DNA of 12,615 nt from a virus (IMGVR_UViG_2541047681_000005); one strand, 5' to 3'; counted from the first letter of the stretch, positions 1-12,615 are shown. Numbers and translations are program-made. The notes: generated from the sequence alone by a model not told the origin.

Positions 1-1230
1 ATGCGCAGAGCACTTAACAAACTGAGTGATACACAGCTAAGGAAAATCAACGGCACACCCGCCCAAAAAACAGCCTTTCTTAATGACGGTGGAAACCTGA
101 GCGTCAGGCATTCAACCAGCGGCCTTTTAACCTGGTATTTCACCTACAGGGCCGGAACGGGAAGGGGAGCACGACCGGAACGGATTAAGCTGGGAAATTA
201 TCCTGATCTGAGTCTGAAAGCTGCCAGGGAAAAAGCGGCACAGTGTCGCGCTTGGCTTGCTGAGGGGAAAAATCCACGTCATGAGATGAATTACACCGTA
301 CAGAAAGCGTTAAAGCCCGTAACGGTTGGCGATGCGCTTACCTACTGGCTTGAGTCTTACGTAAAGGAAAACCGCGTGGATTATGCCGCCCTGAAAAAGC
401 GCCTTAATAATCACGTAATACAGCACATTGGTGCTATGCCGCTGGATAAATGCGAGCTACGGCACTGGCTGGCCTGTTTTGACCAGGTGGCAAAGCGAAC
501 GCCTGTTACTGCCGGATTCTTGCTACAGACGTGCAAACAGGCGCTTAAGTTCTGCCGGAGGCGGCGCTATGCAATCAGCAACGTTCTTGATGATATGAGT
601 GTGGCGGACGTTGGGAAAAAACCGGATATAAGCGAGCGTGTCTTAAGCACCAAAGAACTTGGCGAATTATTGCAGGCACTGGACAAAAAAATATTTTCCC
701 CTTACTACGTCGCACTAATCCGCCTCCTGATTGTTTTCGGATGCCGGACGGTAGAACTGAGGTTATCGGAGATCAGCGAGTGGGATTTTACCGAAATGCT
801 CTGGACCGTGCCGAAAGAACACAGCAAAACGAAGGTGGCAATATTCCGGTCCATACCGGAAGCAATACTGCCGTTCGTCACGCAGCTGGTGGAGCAGAAC
901 AGGCACACGGGCTTATTGCTGGGGGAAGTGAAACAGGAAACAAGCGTGTCGCAGTACGGCAGATTAGCGCACAGGAGGCTAAAACACCCTCACTGGTCAC
1001 TGCATGACATCCGGCGCACCTTTACAACGATGCTGAACGATTTAGGCGTGGATCCTCACGTCGTGGAGCAGCTTACAGGTCATCAGATGCCAGGGATGCA
1101 ACGAGTCTATAACCATTCCCGTTATCTGGATGCGAAACGTGACGCGCTGGATATGTGGACGGAGCGGTTAGGGATACTGGCGGGAACACATGAAAACGTA
1201 ACCACATTGCCAATAGCCAGAGAAATATAA
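1..1230 (+). CDS. int: Tyrosine site-specific integrase, P4-type
   Basis: 409-aa ORF starting at window base 1. N-terminal arm-binding-like region (LNDGGNLSV...WYFTYR...LGNYPDLSLKAARE) and C-terminal catalytic region with HDIRRT (H-x-x-R) and a terminal VYNHSRY tyrosine motif. Upstream RBS not visible because the window starts at the ATG. Confidence 0.9.
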   Translation: MRRALNKLSDTQLRKINGTPAQKTAFLNDGGNLSVRHSTSGLLTWYFTYRAGTGRGARPERIKLGNYPDLSLKAAREKAAQCRAWLAEGKNPRHEMNYTVQKALKPVTVGDALTYWLESYVKENRVDYAALKKRLNNHVIQHIGAMPLDKCELRHWLACFDQVAKRTPVTAGFLLQTCKQALKFCRRRRYAISNVLDDMSVADVGKKPDISERVLSTKELGELLQALDKKIFSPYYVALIRLLIVFGCRTVELRLSEISEWDFTEMLWTVPKEHSKTKVAIFRSIPEAILPFVTQLVEQNRHTGLLLGEVKQETSVSQYGRLAHRRLKHPHWSLHDIRRTFTTMLNDLGVDPHVVEQLTGHQMPGMQRVYNHSRYLDAKRDALDMWTERLGILAGTHENVTTLPIAREI

Positions 1231-1595: not shown

Positions 1596-1784
1596 GTGTT
1601 AAGCACAGATCGCTTTATACGTGAAAAAGAATGTCAGCAACTTACAGGCCTGAGCCGCTCATGTCGGTACCGCCTGGAAAAAGCCGGACAATTCCCATCA
1701 CGGCGTAAGCTGGGCGGTCGTTCCGTTGGCTGGTCTTTATCCGAAGTTCTGGCATGGAAGGACAGCTGCGAGGCAGTTCACTAA
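1596..1784 (+). CDS. alpA: AlpA-family transcriptional regulator (excisionase-like winged-helix protein)
   Basis: 62-aa ORF with GTG start at 1596 preceded by RBS AAAGGGGGAA. Sequence (FIREKECQQLTGLSRSCRYRLEKAGQFPSRRKLGGRSVGWSLSEVLAWK) matches the AlpA/prophage CP4-57 regulatory protein pattern. Position directly after a P4-type int is typical. Confidence 0.85.
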   Translation: MLSTDRFIREKECQQLTGLSRSCRYRLEKAGQFPSRRKLGGRSVGWSLSEVLAWKDSCEAVH

Positions 1785-1836: not shown

Positions 1837-2196
1837 ATGAATACTGGATATTCTCCCGAACAAGGGCGGGGCTTCGTTCGTCCTGAAAAACAGAATCTGC
1901 AAAATTTTGCCGAAATTATTCCGGTTATTTCCGGCCTTACTGGCGGGAGTGAAACCAATATTGTTAACGCCAGAGCGTTGCAGATGTTTGATGATAAAAA
2001 GGGAGTAAATTTAACTTACACCCCTGACGGCAATCAGAATATGAGCATTATCTCTGAGTCAGGTTTCTACAAACTAATAAAAACAAAAAGCGCCCCGTTG
2101 CCGGAGCGCCTTTGTGAACAATTAACCTACTGCGCAAAAAATGAATCTGAGCAGTGGGATTATATCAACCATGTGGAGAAGCGCCACAATTGCCGA
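1837..2196 (+). pseudogene. Possible decayed Bro-N/antirepressor-like remnant (N-terminal part of a 428-aa composite ORF)
   Basis: The first ~115 aa (DGNQNMSIISESGFYKLIKTKSAPLPERL) weakly resemble the Bro-N/KilA-N motif (ESGLYSLI...). The remainder of ORF 1837..3123 is Cys/Arg/Ser-rich and low in complexity, crosses a divergent promoter region and overlaps a better-supported minus-strand gene, so the long ORF is not one real protein. Confidence 0.25.
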
Positions 2197-2543
2197 ATAA
2201 CGGGCAAAACAAAGGCCACCCGCTACGGTGGCCCCTCGACACAAGCTACACGTTATCCCCAACGCATGAGCATTGCCAACAATGCCACATTTGCGGCTGG
2301 TGGGCAATGCAATCAGTCTGGTTCAGTTCGTTGCCATACCTGCAATGAGCGCTTTTCCCTGTACTCTTTAAGGAATTGCTCAAGGGCAAAAGCACATGGC
2401 GCGAATCTTTCTGATTCATGCTCTATCTTTCTGCGCCGTCTTTTCCGTGCCGGTGATAATGTTTTGGTCAATTCTTTATCGGTCATTGTGTTGTCCTGCA
2501 TAGCAATGCGCCGTAGTTACTCACACCACGGCGCTGGTGATGG

Positions 2544-2723
2544 TTACTCCTGCTCTTTGGCCTTGCGGCGCTGGCGGCGTTTGATTTCGCCGCGCATGGC
2601 TGCGTTTATAAACTGTCCCGTGCTTTCGCCTTCTTCTTTCACGTTCTCCATGCCTTCAATAATTTCATGGGCAATACGTGCAGTTACAGATTGTGATTTT
2701 GCATTCTTTGGACCCGTTGCCAT
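2544..2723 (-). CDS. Hypothetical small basic protein (59 aa), divergently transcribed from the left operon
   Basis: Internal ATG at 2721..2723 (complement) preceded by RBS GAGGGG with 6-nt spacing; product MATGPKNAKSQ...EIKRRQRRKAKEQE. Candidate -35/-10 (TTCAAA/TATATT) on the minus strand, overlapped by operator-like repeats. Family not recognised. Confidence 0.45.
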   Translation of the reverse strand: MATGPKNAKSQSVTARIAHEIIEGMENVKEEGESTGQFINAAMRGEIKRRQRRKAKEQE

Positions 2724-2744
2724 GTTTAACCCCTCATGTTTTTG

Positions 2745-2826
2745 GTGTAAGACAATATACACGAAAAAAAAATATTTTGAAGGGTTGACGTGTAAGACAC
2801 CATTGTTTTACATTGTGTCTTACACC
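2745..2826. promoter_or_regulatory. Divergent promoter region with three copies of an 11-bp operator-like motif GTGTAAGACAC
   Basis: Motif at 2745..2755 and 2790..2800 (direct) and 2815..2825 (inverted). Candidate + strand promoter -35 TTGACG (2785..2790) and -10 TTACAT (2808..2813), 17-bp spacer; one operator copy sits in the spacer and the inverted copy at the predicted +1. Candidate minus-strand promoter overlaps the first copy. Confidence 0.55.
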
Positions 2827-2922
2827 TTATTGATGAAAGGCACAGAAACGACGAAACCCCGCACTGTAGGAGCAGTAACGGGGCTTCTAACCACCAACGA
2901 TAGCAACAGTATCGAGGTAGCT

Positions 2923-3123
2923 ATGAGAAATCATACCACACACCCGAAAGGGCGGGACTCGCACAACCTGAATAAATACATCTGGCGTTTTATCGCCCTG
3001 AGCACGGCACAACCGCGCGTGATTACCATTGAGGCCACCAGCGAACAGGAAGCACGCCAGCAATCTCCGGCTGGCTGCGTGATGGTATTTGCTGCCCGTA
3101 TTCGTCAGGGGGTAGGCTTATGA
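2923..3123 (+). CDS. Small protein (66 aa), first gene of the left operon; possibly Icd-like, otherwise hypothetical
   Basis: ATG at 2923 with RBS GAGGT upstream; product MRNHTTHPKGRDSHNLNKYIWRFIALSTAQPRVITIEATSEQEARQQ.... Its stop overlaps the next ATG (ATGA). The Icd-like assignment is a recollection of P4-like prophage annotations and is unverified. Confidence 0.45.
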   Translation: MRNHTTHPKGRDSHNLNKYIWRFIALSTAQPRVITIEATSEQEARQQSPAGCVMVFAARIRQGVGL

Positions 3124-3795: not shown

Positions 3796-4095
3796 ATGAA
3801 ACTTAAATATTCTGGCTTAACTGCCAGTGGCAAAACTCGCACTAAATTCATGCGCGGTGATATTTACCGCGACCAGTACGGCGGCACGGTAATGATTAAG
3901 GGCGTGGAGGAACGGCGCGTAACCTACCGTCGTGAAGGCTACGAATATGATTGCGTGATGCCTGTTTATCAGTTCGATCGTGATTTTTCTCTGGTGCAGG
4001 CCGTACCGCGTAACGTGCCCACCAGCAGGGAGAAAGCACGCGCCAATATTCAGGAAATAAAAAAGATGCTTAACGTATTCAGGGGTAAGAAATGA
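3796..4095 (+). CDS. Hypothetical protein (99 aa)
   Basis: ATG at 3796 with RBS GGAGA 9 nt upstream; stop overlaps the primase start (ATGA). No family recognised. Confidence 0.55.
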   Translation: MKLKYSGLTASGKTRTKFMRGDIYRDQYGGTVMIKGVEERRVTYRREGYEYDCVMPVYQFDRDFSLVQAVPRNVPTSREKARANIQEIKKMLNVFRGKK

Positions 4096-5846
4096 AACTG
4101 GCACCGAACGTAAAAAAACAACCACGCGGAATAAAACACAAAGACACAGAGGTAATTATTTTCGCGGGTAGTGATGCGTGGTCACATGCAAAACAGTGGC
4201 AGGAGCAGGACGGCCCCGCATCCGGCGATAATGTGCCGCCTGTGTGGCTTGGGCCAAATCAGCTTGCCGAACTTGATGCGCTGAAAATTGTTCCGGATGG
4301 GAAAAAGCGCGTAAGGCTGTACCAGGCCGGAGAACTGGATTTAGTGGAGACCAAAAAGATTGGTCAGAAGCTGGCGGCGGCAGATATTCAGGACGCAAAT
4401 TTTTACCCTGATGGTATGCACGGTCAGAAGGTGGAGAACTGGCGCGAATATCTGGCCCGTGAGCGCCAGAATCTTTCTGATGGTCTGGTCATTGAGCTTC
4501 CGGTAAAGCAAAAGGCGCAACTTTCGCAGATGGCGGACAGTGAGCGCGCGCAGCTGCTTGCCGATCGCTTTGATGGCGTTTGCGTACATCCTGAAAGTGA
4601 AATCGTTCACGTATGGCGCGGCGGGGTATGGTGTCCGGTCAGCACAATGGAACTTAGCCGCGAAATGGTGGCGATCTATTCAGAGCACAGGGCCACTTTC
4701 AGCAAGCGCGTAATCAATAACGCCGTGGAAGCGTTAAAAGTTATTGCCGAACCAATGGGCGAGCCGTCCGGCGATTTGCTGCCGTTCGCCAATGGTGCGC
4801 TTGACCTGAAAACGGGGGAATTTTCCCCGCACACGCCGGAGAACTGGATCACCACGCACAACGGCATTGAGTACACGCCACCAGCACCAGGGGAGAACAT
4901 CCGCGATAACGCGCCAAACTTTCATAAATGGCTTAAGCACGCAGCCGGAAAAGACCCGCGCAAGATGATGCGTATATGTGCCGCGCTGTACATGATTATG
5001 GCGAACCGGTACGACTGGCAGATGTTTATTGAGGCCACCGGAGACGGCGGGAGCGGTAAAAGTACATTCACGCACATAGCCAGCCTTCTGGCAGGGAAAC
5101 AGAACACGGTAAGCGCTGAAATGACATCGCTTGATGATGCTGGTGGACGTGCGCAGGTTGTCGGGAGTCGTCTTATCGTCCTGGCTGACCAGCCGAAATA
5201 TACAGGCGAAGGAACGGGCATCAAGAAAATCACGGGCGGTGACCCCGTGGAAATTAACCCGAAATACGAAAAGCGTTTCACGGCTGTAATCAGGGCGGTG
5301 GTGCTGGCGACCAACAATAACCCGATGATATTCACCGAACGGGCCGGAGGTGTGGCACGTCGTCGCGTGATTTTCCGTTTCGACAATATCGTCAGTGAGG
5401 CCGAAAAAGACAGGGAGCTACCGGAAAAGATCGCGGCTGAAATCCCTGTCATTATCCGCCGATTGCTGGCGAACTTTACCGACCCTGAGAAGGCACGGGC
5501 TTTACTACTGGAACAGCGTGACGGTGATGAAGCACTGGCAATAAAGCAACAGACGGATCCGGTTATTGAGTTTTGCCAGTTCCTGAATTTTCTGGAGGAA
5601 GCGCGCGGCCTGATGATGGGGGGCGGTGGCGATTCAGTGAAGTACACGACCAGGAACAGCCTTTACCGCGTCTATCTGGCGTTTATGGCATACGCAGGCA
5701 GGAGCAAACCGCTAAACGTAAATGACTTTGGAAAGGCTATGAAGCCTGCCGCAAAAGTTTACGGACATGAATATATTACGCGGAAAGTTAAGGGGGTAAC
5801 GCAGACTAACGCAATAACAACAGACGAGTGCGACGCGTTTTTATAA
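4092..5846 (+). CDS. Replication primase/helicase, P4-alpha / D5-like family with P-loop NTPase domain
   Basis: 584-aa ORF with RBS AGGGG upstream; Walker A motif GDGGSGKST, followed by a hydrophobic strand (LIVLADQP) consistent with Walker B. Position after int-alpA and immediately before an iteron cluster matches satellite pri-rep genes. Confidence 0.9.
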   Translation: MKLAPNVKKQPRGIKHKDTEVIIFAGSDAWSHAKQWQEQDGPASGDNVPPVWLGPNQLAELDALKIVPDGKKRVRLYQAGELDLVETKKIGQKLAAADIQDANFYPDGMHGQKVENWREYLARERQNLSDGLVIELPVKQKAQLSQMADSERAQLLADRFDGVCVHPESEIVHVWRGGVWCPVSTMELSREMVAIYSEHRATFSKRVINNAVEALKVIAEPMGEPSGDLLPFANGALDLKTGEFSPHTPENWITTHNGIEYTPPAPGENIRDNAPNFHKWLKHAAGKDPRKMMRICAALYMIMANRYDWQMFIEATGDGGSGKSTFTHIASLLAGKQNTVSAEMTSLDDAGGRAQVVGSRLIVLADQPKYTGEGTGIKKITGGDPVEINPKYEKRFTAVIRAVVLATNNNPMIFTERAGGVARRRVIFRFDNIVSEAEKDRELPEKIAAEIPVIIRRLLANFTDPEKARALLLEQRDGDEALAIKQQTDPVIEFCQFLNFLEEARGLMMGGGGDSVKYTTRNSLYRVYLAFMAYAGRSKPLNVNDFGKAMKPAAKVYGHEYITRKVKGVTQTNAITTDECDAFL

Positions 5847-5860
5847 TTTTTTGTAATTGC

Positions 5861-6086
5861 TGTCTACCCTGTCTACCTGAGTAAAGAAAAATACATTTAA
5901 TTCAGTGCATTAAGTTAGGTAGACAGCCTTTTTTTACTGTCTACCCACTATCTACCCTCTCTACCTGATTTTACCTGAATCAGACAGGGAGGTAGACACG
6001 GGGTAGATAGTGGATAAAAGCACTCTACCCCGCTGAAAGCCGCGCCATTACTGGCATGAGGGCCACTAAGGTAGATAAGGTAGACA
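5861..6086. repeat. Iteron cluster, putative replication origin
   Basis: About 11 copies of the core TCTACC / GGTAGA in both orientations (TGTCTACC at 5861, 5870, 5938; ATCTACCC 5950; CTCTACC 5959 and 6023; GGTAGACA 5918, 5991, 6079; GGTAGATA 6002, 6070), with an AT-rich stretch at 5880..5915. Directly downstream of the primase stop. Confidence 0.7.
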
Positions 6087-6134
6087 AGGGGAGGCACAAC
6101 TCAAAACTTTTTAAACGAGGGGGTAAAAATAAAT

Positions 6135-6413
6135 ATGCACACTTCAGGGAAATTTAATAAATCACTCAAAAAACGCAGAGACAGAACAGAACCGAAATAT
6201 CGCGCGTTAGACATGACAGAGCACGCTTTAAAGGTGGCAATCAGAACGATAGACCGCCACGCGGGGGAAGGATACGCGAAAGCACATCCCGAACTGATAA
6301 GCGCATTCATGACCACGACGGCGGCAAATTTTGCCACGCTGACAGAGCGGGAGATTGCCGAAGCGGAACAGGTAACAACCATCAACGTTAAAACCGGAGA
6401 GGTGGAATCATGA
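6135..6413 (+). CDS. Hypothetical protein (92 aa)
   Basis: ATG at 6135 with strong RBS GAGGGGG; stop overlaps the next start (ATGA). No family recognised. Confidence 0.55.
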   Translation: MHTSGKFNKSLKKRRDRTEPKYRALDMTEHALKVAIRTIDRHAGEGYAKAHPELISAFMTTTAANFATLTEREIAEAEQVTTINVKTGEVES

Positions 6414-7247: not shown

Positions 7248-7454
7248 ATGGCTGAAGAGAAAAAAGGCGGTGTTTCGGTGTACATAAGCCCCGAAATCGT
7301 GGAGGTGCTCAAGCAGCGCCACAAAAAAAACTATGAGGCTGGCGTGGCGGCTGGACTGGATCCGCTGATGACGCCGGAGCCGTCGATAGGTTCACTTGTA
7401 CGCTCTTATTTACTTGCGGCGCTTGGGATGCATAAAAATTATGGGGGTGAATAA
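7248..7454 (+). CDS. Hypothetical protein (68 aa), translationally coupled to the major capsid gene
   Basis: ATG at 7248 with RBS AGAGGA; its stop TAA overlaps the capsid ATG (TAATG). No family recognised. Confidence 0.55.
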   Translation: MAEEKKGGVSVYISPEIVEVLKQRHKKNYEAGVAAGLDPLMTPEPSIGSLVRSYLLAALGMHKNYGGE

Positions 7455-8509
7455 TGGCAGGCAAAGCAACGGCACTTAACACTAACCAGCTTTTCATGTA
7501 CCTGAATCGCGGGGATATTGCGGATTTTAAATTCAGCCCTCTGTTTACTACGCTGTTTTTCCCGAACGTGGCGACATTCAGCACGCAAAACATCATGCTG
7601 GATACCCTGGACATTGAAGAAGTCACCATGTCGGCGTTTTGTTCGCCTATGGTGGGTAGCCAGGTTCAGCGCGATAAAGGGTACGAAACCAGCACGATTA
7701 AACCTGGCTACATGAAGCCAAAGCACGAAATCGATCCAACGAAAACCATCATGCGCATGGCTGGAGAAGATCCGGCACAGCTTAACGACCCTACCTATCG
7801 CCGTATGCGCCTGATTACTGGCAATATGCGCCGCCAGATAAACGCCATAAAAGCGCGCGTGGAATGGCTGGCGGTAAATGCGGTAACGACCGGAAAAAAC
7901 ATCATTGAGGGCGAAGGCATAGAGCGCTATGAAATCGACTGGAAGATACCGGAAAAAAACATCATAGAGCAGGCCGACGGGAAAAAATGGTCAGAGCAGG
8001 ACAAAGAAACCCACGATCCAATCTATGATATCGAACTATACGCCGATCAGGCTGGTTGCCCCGCAAACGTCATGATTATGGGCGCTGAGGTATGGCGAAC
8101 GTTACGCAGCTTTAAAAAATTCCGTGAGCTGTACGATCTTTCCCGTGGTTCAGAATCCGCCGCCGAACTGGCCTGTAAAAACCTGGGCGAAGTGGTGAGC
8201 TTTAAAGGCTATCTTGGTGATCTGGCCCTTATCGTCTATTCCGGCAAATACACTGACAGCGATGGTACCGAAAAATATTTCCTTGAGCCTGATTTGCTGG
8301 TCCTGGGCAACACCAACAATAAAGGGCTGGTGGCCTATGGTGCGATAATGGATCAGGAAGCGGTAAGAACGGGCGCAACACAAAACATGTTTTACCCGAA
8401 AAACTGGATTGAGGACGGCGATCCGGCGATTGAGTACGTGCAGACACACAGTGCACCGCAGCCGGTACCGGCAGATATTCGCAAATTTGTTACCGTCAAA
8501 ATTGGTTAA
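7454..8509 (+). CDS. Major capsid protein, lambda gpE family
   Basis: 351-aa product aligns by eye along its length with lambda gpE (341 aa): [163 protein letters not shown] upstream. Confidence 0.9.
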   Translation: [351 protein letters not shown]

Positions 8510-8521
8510 CGGGGGGATTCT

Positions 8522-8857
8522 ATGGACACTCCATACATTGAGTTATTTGCAGGCAGTCAGCAGGTCGCCACGACGCTGGTACATTTTGCCGCTGATGCTG
8601 GCGTTATTCAGGAATTTACCCCGCTGATGCTGGCAGACAATGGCGAGTTTAAGCCGTGGGATGGTCAGGAATCTGGCAAGGCTGTTTATCTGACCTCGTA
8701 CCCTGTGGACACGTCAAAGCAGAAATCAGCACAGTGTTACAAGACGGGGATTTTCAATATTGCCGCCGTTAACTGGCCTGAGAGCGTCGACACCGATGCG
8801 AAAAAATGCGCCGCCTTTGCGGGTTCTGGCGTATCCGTTCAGCCGCTGGCCCGATAA
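8522..8857 (+). CDS. Head decoration protein, lambda gpD family
   Basis: 111-aa product (lambda gpD is 110 aa) with TPLMLADNGEFKPWDG vs TPLMLDTSSRKLVAWDG and YKTGIFNIAAVNWPESVDTDAKKCAAFAGSGVSVQ vs [44 protein letters not shown] upstream. Order is capsid then decoration, the reverse of lambda (D then E). Confidence 0.85.
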   Translation: MDTPYIELFAGSQQVATTLVHFAADAGVIQEFTPLMLADNGEFKPWDGQESGKAVYLTSYPVDTSKQKSAQCYKTGIFNIAAVNWPESVDTDAKKCAAFAGSGVSVQPLAR

Positions 8858-9312: not shown

Positions 9313-9445
9313 ACGGGTCCTTTCCGGCATATGGACCCGTTACGGGGCGGCGACCTCGCGGGTTTTCGCTATTTATGACGTTTTTCCGTGAAGGTGACAC
9401 CACCACCACTTGATTAATATTTAACCATGCGGTTAAGGTAACATT
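9313..9445 (+). other. Lambda-type cos site (cosQ-like, cosN, short cosB) upstream of the TerS-like gene
   Basis: TACGGGTCCTTTCCGG...GTTACG|GGGCGGCGACCTCGCGGGTTTTCGCTATTTATGA closely matches the lambda cohesive-end region as remembered. Predicted 12-nt cohesive end GGGCGGCGACCT at 9345..9356. One R-site-like element (CGTTTTTCCGTG, about 9381..9392) and an AT-rich stretch follow. Confidence 0.75.
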
Positions 9446-9886
9446 ATGATTGATAAAGCTTGTTTTGTAAGTCAGCAGGAAATAGCTGAACATTTCAAGG
9501 TTAACAGAACCACTATTCGCGCATGGACCAAACAGGGGATGCCGTATCTTAATGCGGATCGCGGAAAGTCTGGCGGTTATCACATCGGGCATACATTGCT
9601 TTGGTCTTCAGGTAAAAGCCGTCTTGAGGCCATCAGATATCACGTAGAAACCAGTGCGCTGGAAAAAATTATGTTTGCCAGGCTGCTTTCATCTGAGCGT
9701 GACGAGTACTCCAGTGAAGAAACAGAACATCGATTTGATGAAGGTTTGCAGATTTACGGCTATTCACCGGAAGATGTGAGCAAGGCACGAAATAAAATGG
9801 CTGGCTTTCTGGCTGGGTGGCGTCATGCCGTAAGCGTTCGCCGTGCCAGCATGGAACAATCAGTCGTTACAGAACAGCAAAGTTAA
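9446..9886 (+). CDS. Small terminase-like protein, lambda Nu1-type DNA-binding N-terminus with divergent C-terminus (TerS/Rpp-like)
   Basis: 146-aa ORF about 90 bp downstream of cosN, as Nu1 is in lambda. N-terminus QQEIAEHFKVNRTTIRAWTKQGMPYL aligns with Nu1 KKQLADIFGASIRTIQNWQEQGMPVL (winged HTH). Shorter than Nu1 (181 aa) and the C-terminal region does not resemble Nu1's. Confidence 0.7.
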   Translation: MIDKACFVSQQEIAEHFKVNRTTIRAWTKQGMPYLNADRGKSGGYHIGHTLLWSSGKSRLEAIRYHVETSALEKIMFARLLSSERDEYSSEETEHRFDEGLQIYGYSPEDVSKARNKMAGFLAGWRHAVSVRRASMEQSVVTEQQS

Positions 9887-10090: not shown

Positions 10091-10145
10091 GCGAAAAACC
10101 GCGAGGTCGCCGCCCCGTAACGGGCCATAATTCCAGGAAGGACCC
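10091..10145 (-). other. Second cos-like sequence in inverted orientation (cosQ/cosN-like, no recognisable cosB)
   Basis: Reverse complement of 10091..10145 reads CGGGTCCTTCCTGGAATTATGGCCCGTTACGGGGCGGCGACCTCGCGGTTTTTCGCTATTTATGA, about 85% identical to cos at 9313..9380 including an intact GGGCGGCGACCT. No R-site-like element or TerS gene follows it on the minus strand. Confidence 0.6.
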
Positions 10146-10179: not shown

Positions 10180-10461
10180 ATGACAGAAGCCGAAATACTG
10201 CGATTAATCCGCCGCGTTGCCGGAATCAGCCAGCAGCATGACGAACAGGCCACGCAGCCGGACAGCGTGACCGCTGAAAATTATGTGCGTGTTGTTGCTG
10301 AGGTGATGCGCCGTGATGGTATCCAGCTTAATGATGTTGATATGCGCGACATACGGATCCGCGTTCTGGAAATGCTGGCCTACAATCGCCGCGTTGAACT
10401 GTATCGGGAGAAAGAAAAAATAACGTACCACTGGAAGAAGCCGGAGCGGTTGCGGCGGTAA
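10180..10461 (+). CDS. Hypothetical protein (93 aa)
   Basis: ATG at 10180 with RBS GGGGGC upstream; charged product (MTEAEILRLIRRVAG...). No family recognised. Whether it belongs to the satellite or the junction region is unresolved. Confidence 0.5.
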   Translation: MTEAEILRLIRRVAGISQQHDEQATQPDSVTAENYVRVVAEVMRRDGIQLNDVDMRDIRIRVLEMLAYNRRVELYREKEKITYHWKKPERLRR

Positions 10462-11154
10462 CTGGTTGATATTTTCGAAATTCGCCAGCGGCGAACATCG
10501 GGGAAACCAGCCTAACCCGTTGATATTTTCGGAAACCTCAATTTGAGGAAGTCGGCGCGGTAACTCGCTGAACTTAAAGCAAAGCGCAAAATTGCGCTTG
10601 CTGAATAATCATTATGATTACGCAGATGATTAAGGAATGACCGAAGGCGGAAATTCGCCTGTGGTTAATGGGGGAGTTGCAGATCTGCAACTCGACCATG
10701 AAACTACGGAAACTACCCGTAGTTTGGGTAGTAAGAGTAACACCCAGATTTTGGGGCTTACTCGTGATACCCAAATTTGGGGTATCGGTGGCAACCATAA
10801 CGACTTTCGTTACGGTTGATGCTTTTACCCCATTGGGGGAAAGGTATTACGATAATCATAACACCTACCGAACAGGTAAAGCCCACCAGCCTGATTAACG
10901 TTTAACCGGAAAAAAATTCCGGTAGGTGGGGATCCCCATATAGACATTAACGCCCCTCATGAATTGGTGCGCTTCCCCCTGGAAAGATGATCCGCCTGTA
11001 TATTTCTTGTGTCTATTTGTTCCACGTTGTTTCATACGGTGCACCGAACGGTGTAGTTAATGGTGTAGTCAATTTGCGATTTTTGGCACTTTTTCAGTGT
11101 AGATTATTTAATTAAATCAATGGTTTGTCTTGATATAGTGATAAAAGGACATAT
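10462..11154. other. Palindrome-dense non-coding tract between the last satellite ORF and phoQ (possible attR region or structured RNA)
   Basis: No convincing ORF. Direct repeat TAAC-nGTTGATATTTTCG-AAA at about 10459 and 10513. Hairpin-forming palindromes roughly every 30 bp, e.g. AAGCGCAAAATTGCGCTT, GTTGCAGATCTGCAAC, GATACCCAAATTTGGGGTATC, CCGGAAAAAAATTCCGG, TGGGGATCCCCA, CGGTGCACCG. Tandem GGTGTAGT(T/C)AAT at 11050..11073. Confidence 0.4.
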
Positions 11155-12615
11155 TTATTCATCTTTCGGCGCAGAATGCTGGCGACCAAAAATCACTTCC
11201 ATCCGCGCACCGCCCAGCATGCTCTCTCCGGCGACGATTTTACCCTCATATTGCTCGGTGATTTCGCGGGCTACCGCCAGCCCCACACCTTGCCCAGGGC
11301 GTAAAGTATCAACCCGTTGACCACGGTCGAAAATGACCTCTCGCTTGCTTAATGGAATACCGGGGCCATCATCCTCGACCACAATATAGAGATGCTCGTC
11401 GGTTTGCCTTGCAGAAATTTCGACAAACTCGAGGCAATATTTACAGGCGTTATCCAGCACGTTGCCCATCACTTCGACAAAATCATTCTGCTCACCAACA
11501 AAGCTGATTTCTGGCGAGATATCGAGAGAGATATTGACCCCTTTGCGTTGATACACTTTGTTCAGCGCCGAGGTGAGATTGTCCAACAGTGGCGCGACCG
11601 GATGCAGCTCGCGGCTAAGCAATGTCCCGCCGCGCATACTGGCACGATGCAGGTAGTAGCCAATTTGCTGTGAAATGCGGCTGATTTGCTCCAGCATTAC
11701 CGGCTCAGCATCACTGACGCTCATCTTCTCACTACGCAGAGAACGCAGCGTACTTTGCAGCACCGCCAGTGGCGTTTTCAGACTATGGGTCAGGTCGGTG
11801 AGCGTTGTACGATATTTGTCGTAACGTTCGCGTTCACTTTTTAACAGTCGGTTCAGGTTTCGTACCAGACTGGTCAGTTCTCGCGTTGTGGCTGGATTGA
11901 GCAATTCACGGTTATGTTCTTCCAGTTCGCGGACTTCTTTTGCCAGGGCTTCGATGGGGCGTAAACTCCACCAGGCGGCGACCCACAGCAGCGGGATCAC
12001 TAACAGCAGATTGGCTGAGAGCACATAGATAAACCAGCTCCAGACCATATAGGAACTTTTTAGCTCCACCGGAATGGTATCCACCACCACAATGGTTAAC
12101 TTTGGCATCCGCGATGTTGCCGGGTAGACGTTTACCGCCACCGAGTGGGTCATCTCCGCGTCGTCATCATCTTCCCGCACTTCCTGCAACTGTTGCTGTA
12201 TCGAATGATCTCCACTCAGCAAGAGGCTGGTATCGTTAACATCCGCTTCAATTTCATGAAAACCATTCGATTTCAGCCAGTCAGGCTGGATCATCTTCAT
12301 CAGCCAGGGCACGTCACGTTGCGCCCATAAAAGCTGCCCGTTCTCATCATAAATTAGTGTCATCGTGGGGCTTTGCTTGTCGATATTTTCGGGTAACTCG
12401 ACATGCAACTTATTGTTTTCCCACTTCGCAAGGGTATAGAACAGATTGCTCTCGCCACGTAACAGCCGAAACGTGGTTTTATCGAAACTGACGCTATAAC
12501 CGATCAGCGCAACCATTCCGTAGGCAAGCGAAAGCACCAATACTACTGCTGCCGTTGCTAACAGAAAACGTACCCGCAGCGAGAGCGGGAAAAAAAGATG
12601 CAGTAATTTTTTCAT
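11155..12615 (-). CDS. phoQ: Sensor histidine kinase PhoQ (PhoP/PhoQ two-component system), complete
   Basis: 486-aa minus-strand ORF whose ATG is the last codon of the window. Two transmembrane segments, periplasmic acidic cluster EDDDDAE, H-box [15 protein letters not shown] and G-box DDGPGIP; reads as full-length Escherichia/Shigella-type PhoQ. Confidence 0.97.

Follow-up and report, generated by a model that had tools for sequence, protein, structure and literature searches.

The stretch of DNA analyzed here (IMGVR_UViG_2541047681_000005; 12,615 nt; 'the window') is a phage-inducible chromosomal island (PICI) of Escherichia coli of the EcCICFT073 type, EcCICFT073 being the prototype Gram-negative PICI. 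The context is that of a PICI: the window carries int, alpA, pri-rep, and helper cos, its genes are unidirectional, and its att site is PICI-specific (Table 1). The island is located between roxA and phoQ in complete E. coli genomes, and the CFT073 island occupies the same site and has the same gene order. The replication gene, pri-rep, is followed by genes for a 92-aa protein and an SSB-family protein, which probably form the rest of the replication module; the gene order pri-rep, 92-aa, SSB is common to most related islands. The end of the DUF4222 gene and the start of pri share an ATGA overlap, and the position of the DUF4222 gene is conserved in all related islands; no alignment was obtained between the DUF4222 protein and P4 Cnr, the gene for which occupies the same place upstream of the initiator gene.

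Outside the replication module, islands of this type vary. The left part of the EcCICFT073 island contains small genes where the window contains a 428-aa ORF (1837-3123, + strand), and this ORF is absent from both CFT073 and HM670, where several small genes are present instead. The C-terminal ~45 residues of the ORF are Icd-like (NCBIfam, E 2.9e-18), residues ~50-84 show weak resemblance to anti-repressor (Ant/BRO-N) proteins, and the ORF may have arisen by fusion or through insertion of an accessory gene upstream of icd. Despite the E-like and D-like genes at 7454-8857, no portal or large-terminase gene was found within the window. Related islands have other annotated capsid genes (a ClpP-like prohead protease/capsid fusion, or a 'phage major capsid protein'), and two of them, L008 and L010, have a small terminase subunit; this variety among capsid and terminase genes indicates that the replication module is combined with different morphogenesis modules.

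The λ cosN 12-mer, GGGCGGCGACCT, occurs as two exact copies in opposite orientation, ~750 bp apart, at 9345-9356 (+) and 10104-10115 (-); the two copies correspond to cos.1 and cos.2, which were deleted in the 2018 study of EcCICFT073 (PMC6092414). The IHF consensus, WATCAANNNNTTR, has five exact matches in the window (0.58 expected), at 1336-1348, 10459-10471, 10513-10525, 11115-11127, and 11307-11319. Four of the five flank the island ends (1336, past int; 10459, 10513, and 11115, before phoQ) and the fifth, at 11307, is inside the phoQ ORF; the matches may be part of attL and attR.

Table 1. Genes, protein domains, and origin features of the window, in coordinate order.
Feature	Coordinates	Strand	Remarks
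Tyrosine integrase	1-1230		
AlpA-family regulator	1596-1784		Pfam E 3e-18
DUF4222 protein	3796-4095	+	
pri-rep ('primase family', 584 aa), predicted initiator and SF3 helicase	4092-5846	+	Pfam D5_N, DUF5906, Pox_D5
Pri-Rep N-terminal domain, ~residues 1-133	4092-4490	+	α/β fold, TOPRIM-like at best
Pri-Rep C-terminal winged-helix domain, residues 488-579, predicted iteron-binding	5553-5828	+	1KA8 match; Pfam Pox_D5
Interval equivalent to the segment missing from the EcCICFT073 pri-Δori plasmid	5851-6157		Functional definition of the origin
Iterons 1 and 2, TGTCTACC	5861-5868, 5870-5877	+	Direct repeats, 9 bp spacing; cores invariant in 10-sequence alignment
AT-rich spacer, predicted DNA unwinding element	5878-5917		78% AT
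Iteron 3, reads GGTAGACA on + strand	5918-5925	-	
Iterons 4-6: TGTCTACC at 5938, TATCTACC at 5949, TCTCTACC at 5958	5938-5965	+	
Central short inverted repeat CCTCTCTACCTGATT / AATCAGACAGGGAGG	5956-5992		Inverted repeats I8, I1, I2; whole-array dyad centre 5973/5974
Iterons 7 and 8: GGTAGACA 5991-5998, GGTAGATA 6002-6009	5991-6009	-	
Iteron 9, ACTCTACC	6022-6029	+	
Conserved non-iteron box CTGAAAGCCGCGCCATTACTG, 21 nt	6033-6053		Within GC-rich spacer 6030-6069; near-invariant in 10-sequence alignment
Iterons 10 and 11: GGTAGATA 6070-6077, GGTAGACA 6079-6086	6070-6086	-	Mirror iterons 2 and 1; inverted repeat I2
Conserved AAAACTTTTTAAACGAGGGGGTAAAAATAAA, outside the iteron array	6103-6133	+	From alignment; ATG of next ORF at 6135
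92-aa protein	6135-6413	+	PHROG 1231
SSB-family protein, 140 aa	6410-6832	+	
Capsid-E-like protein (λ-type major capsid homologue)	7454-8509	+	
Head-decoration-like (D-like) protein	8522-8857	+	
Host phoQ	11155-12615	-	

Pri-Rep is related to the α protein of satellite phage P4 over most of its length. Residues 141-579 align with residues 324-762 of P4 α (BLASTP; 40% identity, E 1e-112), nearly without gaps, and the protein matches TIGR01613 'primase_Cterm' with 108.9 bits (cut-off 108.7). Residues 188-432 match the PriRep protein of SaPI5 (PDB 7OLA, E 1e-14), and residues 488-579 match PDB 1KA8 (phmmer, E 6.8e-7), a 100-residue fragment of P4 α that we take to be the origin-binding winged-helix domain of that protein and that is attributed to Yeo et al. 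2002. The N-terminal 323-residue primase region of α has no counterpart in Pri-Rep, and a primase activity of the N-terminal domain of Pri-Rep is putative.

The iteron array 3' of pri-rep

The region that follows pri-rep contains an array of short repeats ('iterons'). The core of the repeat, TCTACC (GGTAGA on the opposite strand), occurs 13 times in the window, and 11 of the 13 copies are located inside 5863-6084, an interval of 222 bp; the remaining 12.4 kb contain just two more copies, which are isolated, at 750 and 12123. In 200 dinucleotide-preserving shuffles, the count averages 2.79 and reaches 9 at most, and, from the shuffle rate, the expectation by chance in 226 bp is ~0.05 copies, for which the Poisson probability of at least 11 copies is ~1e-22. 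A search of the window for the octamer TGTCTACC with at most one mismatch returns 10 sites, all in 5861-6086; the octamer at iteron 9, which is the eleventh, retains an intact core and has two mismatches to TGTCTACC. The earlier note, made from the sequence alone, had described about eleven copies of an 8-bp motif, in both orientations, directly downstream of the primase gene, and the results bear this out on each point: 11 copies are present, on both strands, positions 5861 and 6086 are the exact ends of the first and last octamers, and the first iteron begins 15 nt past the stop codon (5844-5846) of the 584-aa ORF.

The start-to-start spacings of the cores are 9, 46, 22, 11, 9, 31, 11, 22, 46, and 9, and are mirror-symmetric about 5973/5974. 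The symmetry is a symmetry of site placement, not of spacer sequence: positions within octamers are mirror-identical in 37 of 48 cases, and positions outside octamers in 26 of 65. The mirror-symmetric spacings agree with two long imperfect inverted repeats, I1 and I2, and a twelfth site, demanded by perfect symmetry near 5982-5989, is degenerate. Paired iterons are 9-11 bp apart; that is, about one helical turn. Folded as single-stranded DNA, 5855-6092 has an energy of -43.7 kcal/mol (z = -6.4), as is to be expected of inverted iterons. A structured RNA at 5600-6400 was considered and rejected: an Rfam scan returned sub-threshold miRNA-hairpin models only (20-24 bits vs. gathering thresholds of 59-150), and we ascribe these hairpin matches to the inverted repeats and not to an RNA gene.

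The earlier note had also placed the repeats around an AT-rich segment. An AT-rich segment does exist, but it is located between the second and third sites and not at the centre of the array (Table 1). Its mirror counterpart, the spacer at 6030-6069, is only 40% AT, and the AT-rich spacer itself, off-centre in the array, does not rank with the least stable 30-mers that the window contains. For DnaA boxes, we find a single 8/9 match in the origin region, at 6009-6017, which is not conserved in diverged origins, and no enrichment in the window (6 vs. 2.6 expected).

Relation to the EcCICFT073 origin and to origins of P4, SaPIs, and plasmids

The origin of EcCICFT073 has been studied by Fillol-Salom et al. 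(2018, ISME J; PMC6092414). According to that report, the origin in these islands is the region directly 3' of the initiator gene. With a thermosensitive plasmid into which the pri-ori segment of EcCICFT073 was cloned, colonies were obtained at 44 °C; with the Δrep (Δpri) plasmid, no colonies were obtained at 44 °C; and with the Δori plasmid, the number of colonies was significantly reduced, although not abolished. Maintenance is thus reported to depend on pri as well as on ori. To delimit the 'ori' deleted in the latter plasmid, we mapped the primers in the supplement onto the CFT073 locus (L002). Primer rep-3c maps to L002 9131-9151, and the Δori construct ends 4 nt past the pri stop codon, at L002 9151. 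Primer rep-2c, for which no match with up to three substitutions was obtained, maps to L002 ~9438-9458 once an indel of one base is allowed (the PDF text may contain an error here); this position is within the first codons of the next gene, and the full construct ends there. The published deleted 'ori' is, on this mapping, L002 9152-9458, corresponding to 5851-6157 of the window, with 94.8% identity over 307 nt.

The EcCICFT073 origin and the window have all 11 cores at the same positions and in the same orientations, and the Pri-Rep proteins are 95% identical; three iterons differ at flanking positions or at the second position, making the two origins different alleles. An array near-identical to the array in the window has thus been shown to be required in cis for Pri-Rep-dependent plasmid maintenance, and the replication experiment with pri and ori that the earlier note had proposed is, in substance, already done on that allele (PMC6092414). 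Because the EcCICFT073 origin was mapped and tested in 2018, the origin in the window was already known and offers little new biology. What is added here is a site-by-site map, the mirror symmetry of the array, evidence for a joint change of the iteron sequence and the C-terminal domain of the initiator at constant geometry, and the link to the architecture of P4 ori, which bears on the question of a replication module common to PICIs and P4-like satellites. The 2018 report calls the organization of the PICI origin unique, and we found no mention in it of a link between PICI and P4 origins, although such a link may have been noted elsewhere.

Comparison with P4 shows likeness in both the initiator and the site. 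The initiators are homologous in the SF3 helicase and in the C-terminal winged-helix origin-binding domain, and the iterons of both elements occur in both orientations. In the GenBank record of P4 (NC_001609), type I iterons are annotated in ori and in crr, and crr is located directly 3' of the α gene, as the iteron array in the window is located directly 3' of its initiator gene. The P4 iterons are TGTTCACC, with variants at position 2; the window iteron TGTCTACC is likewise 8 bp long and degenerate at position 2, and agrees with the P4 iteron at 6 of 8 positions. On the α-sense strand, P4 ori has the arrangement ++[43, AT]-[22]+++, with spacings of 10, 43, 22, 11, and 10, and the left half of the window array, with spacings of 9, 46, 22, 11, and 9, matches this six-site geometry. 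The same six-site geometry is found in the relatives of the island in Serratia (10, 44, 20, 11, 10) and Morganella (9, 43, 20, 11, 10). The P4 octamer itself is not the octamer of the window, but relatives of the window, Serratia L013 and L082, do use TGTTCAC. In P4 there are two clusters ~4.7 kb apart (ori and the distant crr), whereas in the window there is one compact, mirror-symmetric, 226-bp cluster.

In staphylococcal pathogenicity islands (SaPIs), the origin follows rep directly and consists of 6-12 iterons that flank an AT-rich region, no fewer than two to either side and with the two sides opposed in orientation; the initiator, a self-loading SF3 helicase, binds them with its winged helix (PMC9371898). 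Binding and melting by Rep independently of ATP is a further, biochemical, trait of the SaPI type. The window has this layout, with short iterons in that number range after its rep gene, on both sides and opposed, and SaPI Rep/PriRep and Pri-Rep both comprise an SF3 helicase and a C-terminal winged helix, with homologous helicase cores. The two systems differ in that the hosts of SaPIs are Gram-positive, DNA similarity is nil, the winged-helix domain of the window is detected against P4 α and not against SaPI Rep, and the AT-rich region of the window is off-centre. With respect to the PICI origin, the window has the expected position 3' of pri-rep, two mirror-image sets of sites (11 sites), and an AT-rich spacer, albeit off-centre.

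Iteron plasmid origins (RK2 oriV, pPS10, F, R6K; Rep_3/RepA-type) have iterons of 17-22 bp, mostly in direct tandem, and conserved DnaA boxes; their initiators, Rep proteins with paired winged helices, use DnaA to recruit host DnaB. The window, in contrast, has 8-bp sites in both orientations and an initiator that is itself a helicase (D5_N/SF3, not Rep_3), and does not belong to the class of iteron plasmid origins.

Conservation of layout and change of iteron in related islands

Conservation of the repeats in related islands had been set beforehand, in the earlier note, as one of the tests that could refute the satellite-origin reading, and the repeats are conserved. We compared ten E. coli loci. 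Where the query could be aligned, their origin DNA shares 72-99% identity with the window (for L010, the alignment covers only the first 27% of the query; that is, the 3' end of pri). Each of the ten loci has 9-12 cores in the intergenic region. In an alignment of 10 diverged E. coli origins, invariant columns within 5861-6086 number 53 of 66 in the cores and 37 of 160 outside them. Just 5' of the core, two bases vary by lineage, being TG or TA in the lineage of the window and CC or CT in another.

A scan of genome contigs with a single protein yielded three loci, and an alignment-based scan of viral contigs yielded more. Across 66 IMG/VR loci, cores occur at 35.2 per kb within the first 300 nt past pri and at 0.06 per kb in the rest of the same loci. 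The 66 loci comprise 49 distinct origin sequences, in which the spacing vector is almost constant: the spacers diverge, and the cores keep position and orientation.

With more distant initiators, the iteron changes and the layout is kept. In Serratia L013 (initiator 52% identical to that of the window), the iteron is T[GA]TTCA[CT], in 11 copies, with spacings of 10, 44, 20, 11, 10, 23, 20, 11, 44, and 9; in Morganella L014 (44%), the iteron is TGTTCAT, in 12 copies; in L082 (55%), the iteron is TGTTCA, in 9 copies; and in L084-L094 (53%), the iteron is G-T-[AG]-T-[AT]-C-A-T. These relatives, with initiators 44-55% identical to Pri-Rep, thus have other iterons in the same layout (++, AT spacer of 43-48 bp, -, +++ ...), and AT-rich spacers of 43-48 bp are present at the equivalent position in the E. 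coli variants, Serratia, Morganella, L082, L084, and P4 ori. The C-terminal ~100 residues of these initiators are 30-33% identical to those of Pri-Rep, compared with 51-70% for the helicase core. The C-terminal motif R-x-S-L-Y-R-[VL]-Y-L goes with TCTACC, and the motif R-x-Y-L-Y-H-A-Y-L goes with TGTTCA, P4 included. The covariation of iteron and C-terminal domain, seen in few independent lineages, is the pattern that would be expected if the C-terminal domain reads the iterons.

A further candidate, a switch in specificity between GTGTTCAT-rich and GTATACAT-rich origins of the 53%-identity group, was rejected; both arrays are mixtures of variants of G-T-[AG]-T-[AT]-C-A-T.

In L076 and L078, which have initiators 70% identical to Pri-Rep and the TCTACC core, and in L082, the halves of the origin are permuted and are ~90 bp apart: the module containing the GC-rich box is first, followed, after ~90 bp, by the module containing the AT-rich spacer (in L076 and L078, at ~18-300 nt past the pri stop codon). 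The permutation and separation of the halves in these loci suggest that the two origin modules behave as separable units.

The replication origin and alternative roles of the repeats

We conclude, with a probability of about 0.9, that the vegetative replication origin of this EcCICFT073-type PICI lies at 5861-6086. The earlier proposal of a satellite origin is supported by the type of island, by the published Δori interval, by the conservation of the repeats, and by the homology of the adjacent protein to an origin-binding domain. The origin defines the replicon by which a widespread satellite amplifies after induction by a helper phage, and, since 5700-6250 is matched in 608 of 5,426 complete E. 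coli genomes, always in the chromosome, its correct annotation is useful.

According to the mechanism that we envisage, Pri-Rep, after induction, would bind the 8-bp iterons, with core TCTACC, through its C-terminal winged helix. The sites form two mirror-image, convergent sets of five to six, with pairs one helical turn apart, an arrangement on which the SF3 helicase domains could load themselves as a hexamer or double hexamer. Melting of the duplex would occur at the AT-rich spacer, 5878-5917, and, by analogy with P4 α and staphylococcal SaPI Rep, theta replication would follow, with primers supplied by the N-terminal domain or by host DnaG. A model of this kind, comprising binding, helicase assembly, melting, and theta replication, was reportedly established for P4 α by Ziegelin and colleagues in 1993. 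For SaPI Rep, the same model is established (PMC9371898).

The alternative that fares best, plausible although we consider it less likely, is that the two halves of the array differ in role. Origin activity proper would reside in a single half, and its partner (the GC-rich right half, 5991-6086, being the probable candidate) would serve in cis for enhancement or copy control, in the manner of P4 crr or plasmid inc iterons, by looping or by 'handcuffing' initiators. P4 replication depends on two distinct clusters of α-binding sites, ori and crr, of which crr is directly 3' of α; the left half of the window array alone reproduces the geometry of P4 ori; the AT-rich spacer is in the left half only; and the halves are ~90 bp apart and in reversed order in L076, L078, and L082. 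Against a division of the array into origin and accessory element, a single melting region in SaPI origins is served by the iterons to its left and right (PMC9371898). The deletion described in the 2018 report took both halves together and therefore does not discriminate between the halves (PMC6092414).

Improbable, in our assessment, is that the repeats are mainly an array of transcriptional operators, bound by the winged helix or by another regulator of the island and controlling read-through into the 92-aa, SSB, and capsid genes, with a secondary role as an origin. The island is transcribed in one direction, the genes on either side of the array are co-oriented, and 49 nt separate the end of the last two iterons from the next ATG. 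Autoregulation is common among the iteron-binding initiators of plasmids. However, a consensus scan of 5700-6300 found neither a promoter on the + strand nor a terminator, the geometry of the array matches that of known origins, and a requirement in cis for plasmid maintenance is shown for the near-identical allele (PMC6092414). Finally, a packaging site (cos/pac) or a recombination site (integrase arm sites) is very improbable, even though cosB and att arm regions, too, typically contain protein-binding repeats in both orientations: the cos reading is rejected because the exact λ cosN 12-mers are located elsewhere (9345-9356 and 10104-10115), the integrase gene and the island ends are at least 4.6 kb away, the IHF-consensus sites cluster at the island ends with none in the origin, and the sequence of the repeat tracks the C-terminal domain of the adjacent helicase.

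Within the preferred reading of 5861-6086 as the vegetative origin, we propose tentatively, at somewhat less than even odds, that the architecture of the origin is modular and P4-derived and includes a conserved box, 6033-6053, that is independent of the iteron. The PICI origin looks like a P4-type six-site module to which a second, inverted module, the one with the conserved box, has been joined. If this is true, the origin would represent equivalents of P4 ori and crr fused into one 226-bp palindrome-like unit, and the replication modules of E. coli PICIs and P4 would share ancestry in both the protein and the cis-acting site.

Two conserved elements of the region are not iterons. The element AAAACTTTTTAAACGAGGGGGTAAAAATAAA, which precedes the ATG of the next gene, is probably the ribosome-binding region of that gene. 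The box CTGAAAGCCGCGCCATTACTG is recovered in 64 of 79 IMG/VR loci at up to six mismatches (the variants listed differ at 0-4 positions), and is kept in L082 and L083 despite the different iteron (TGTTCA) there. The box may be a priming or helicase-loading signal, or a site for a host factor. In L076-L079, the place equivalent to the box is occupied by a perfect 13-bp hairpin, GCTGAATCCCTTG/CAAGGGATTCAGC.
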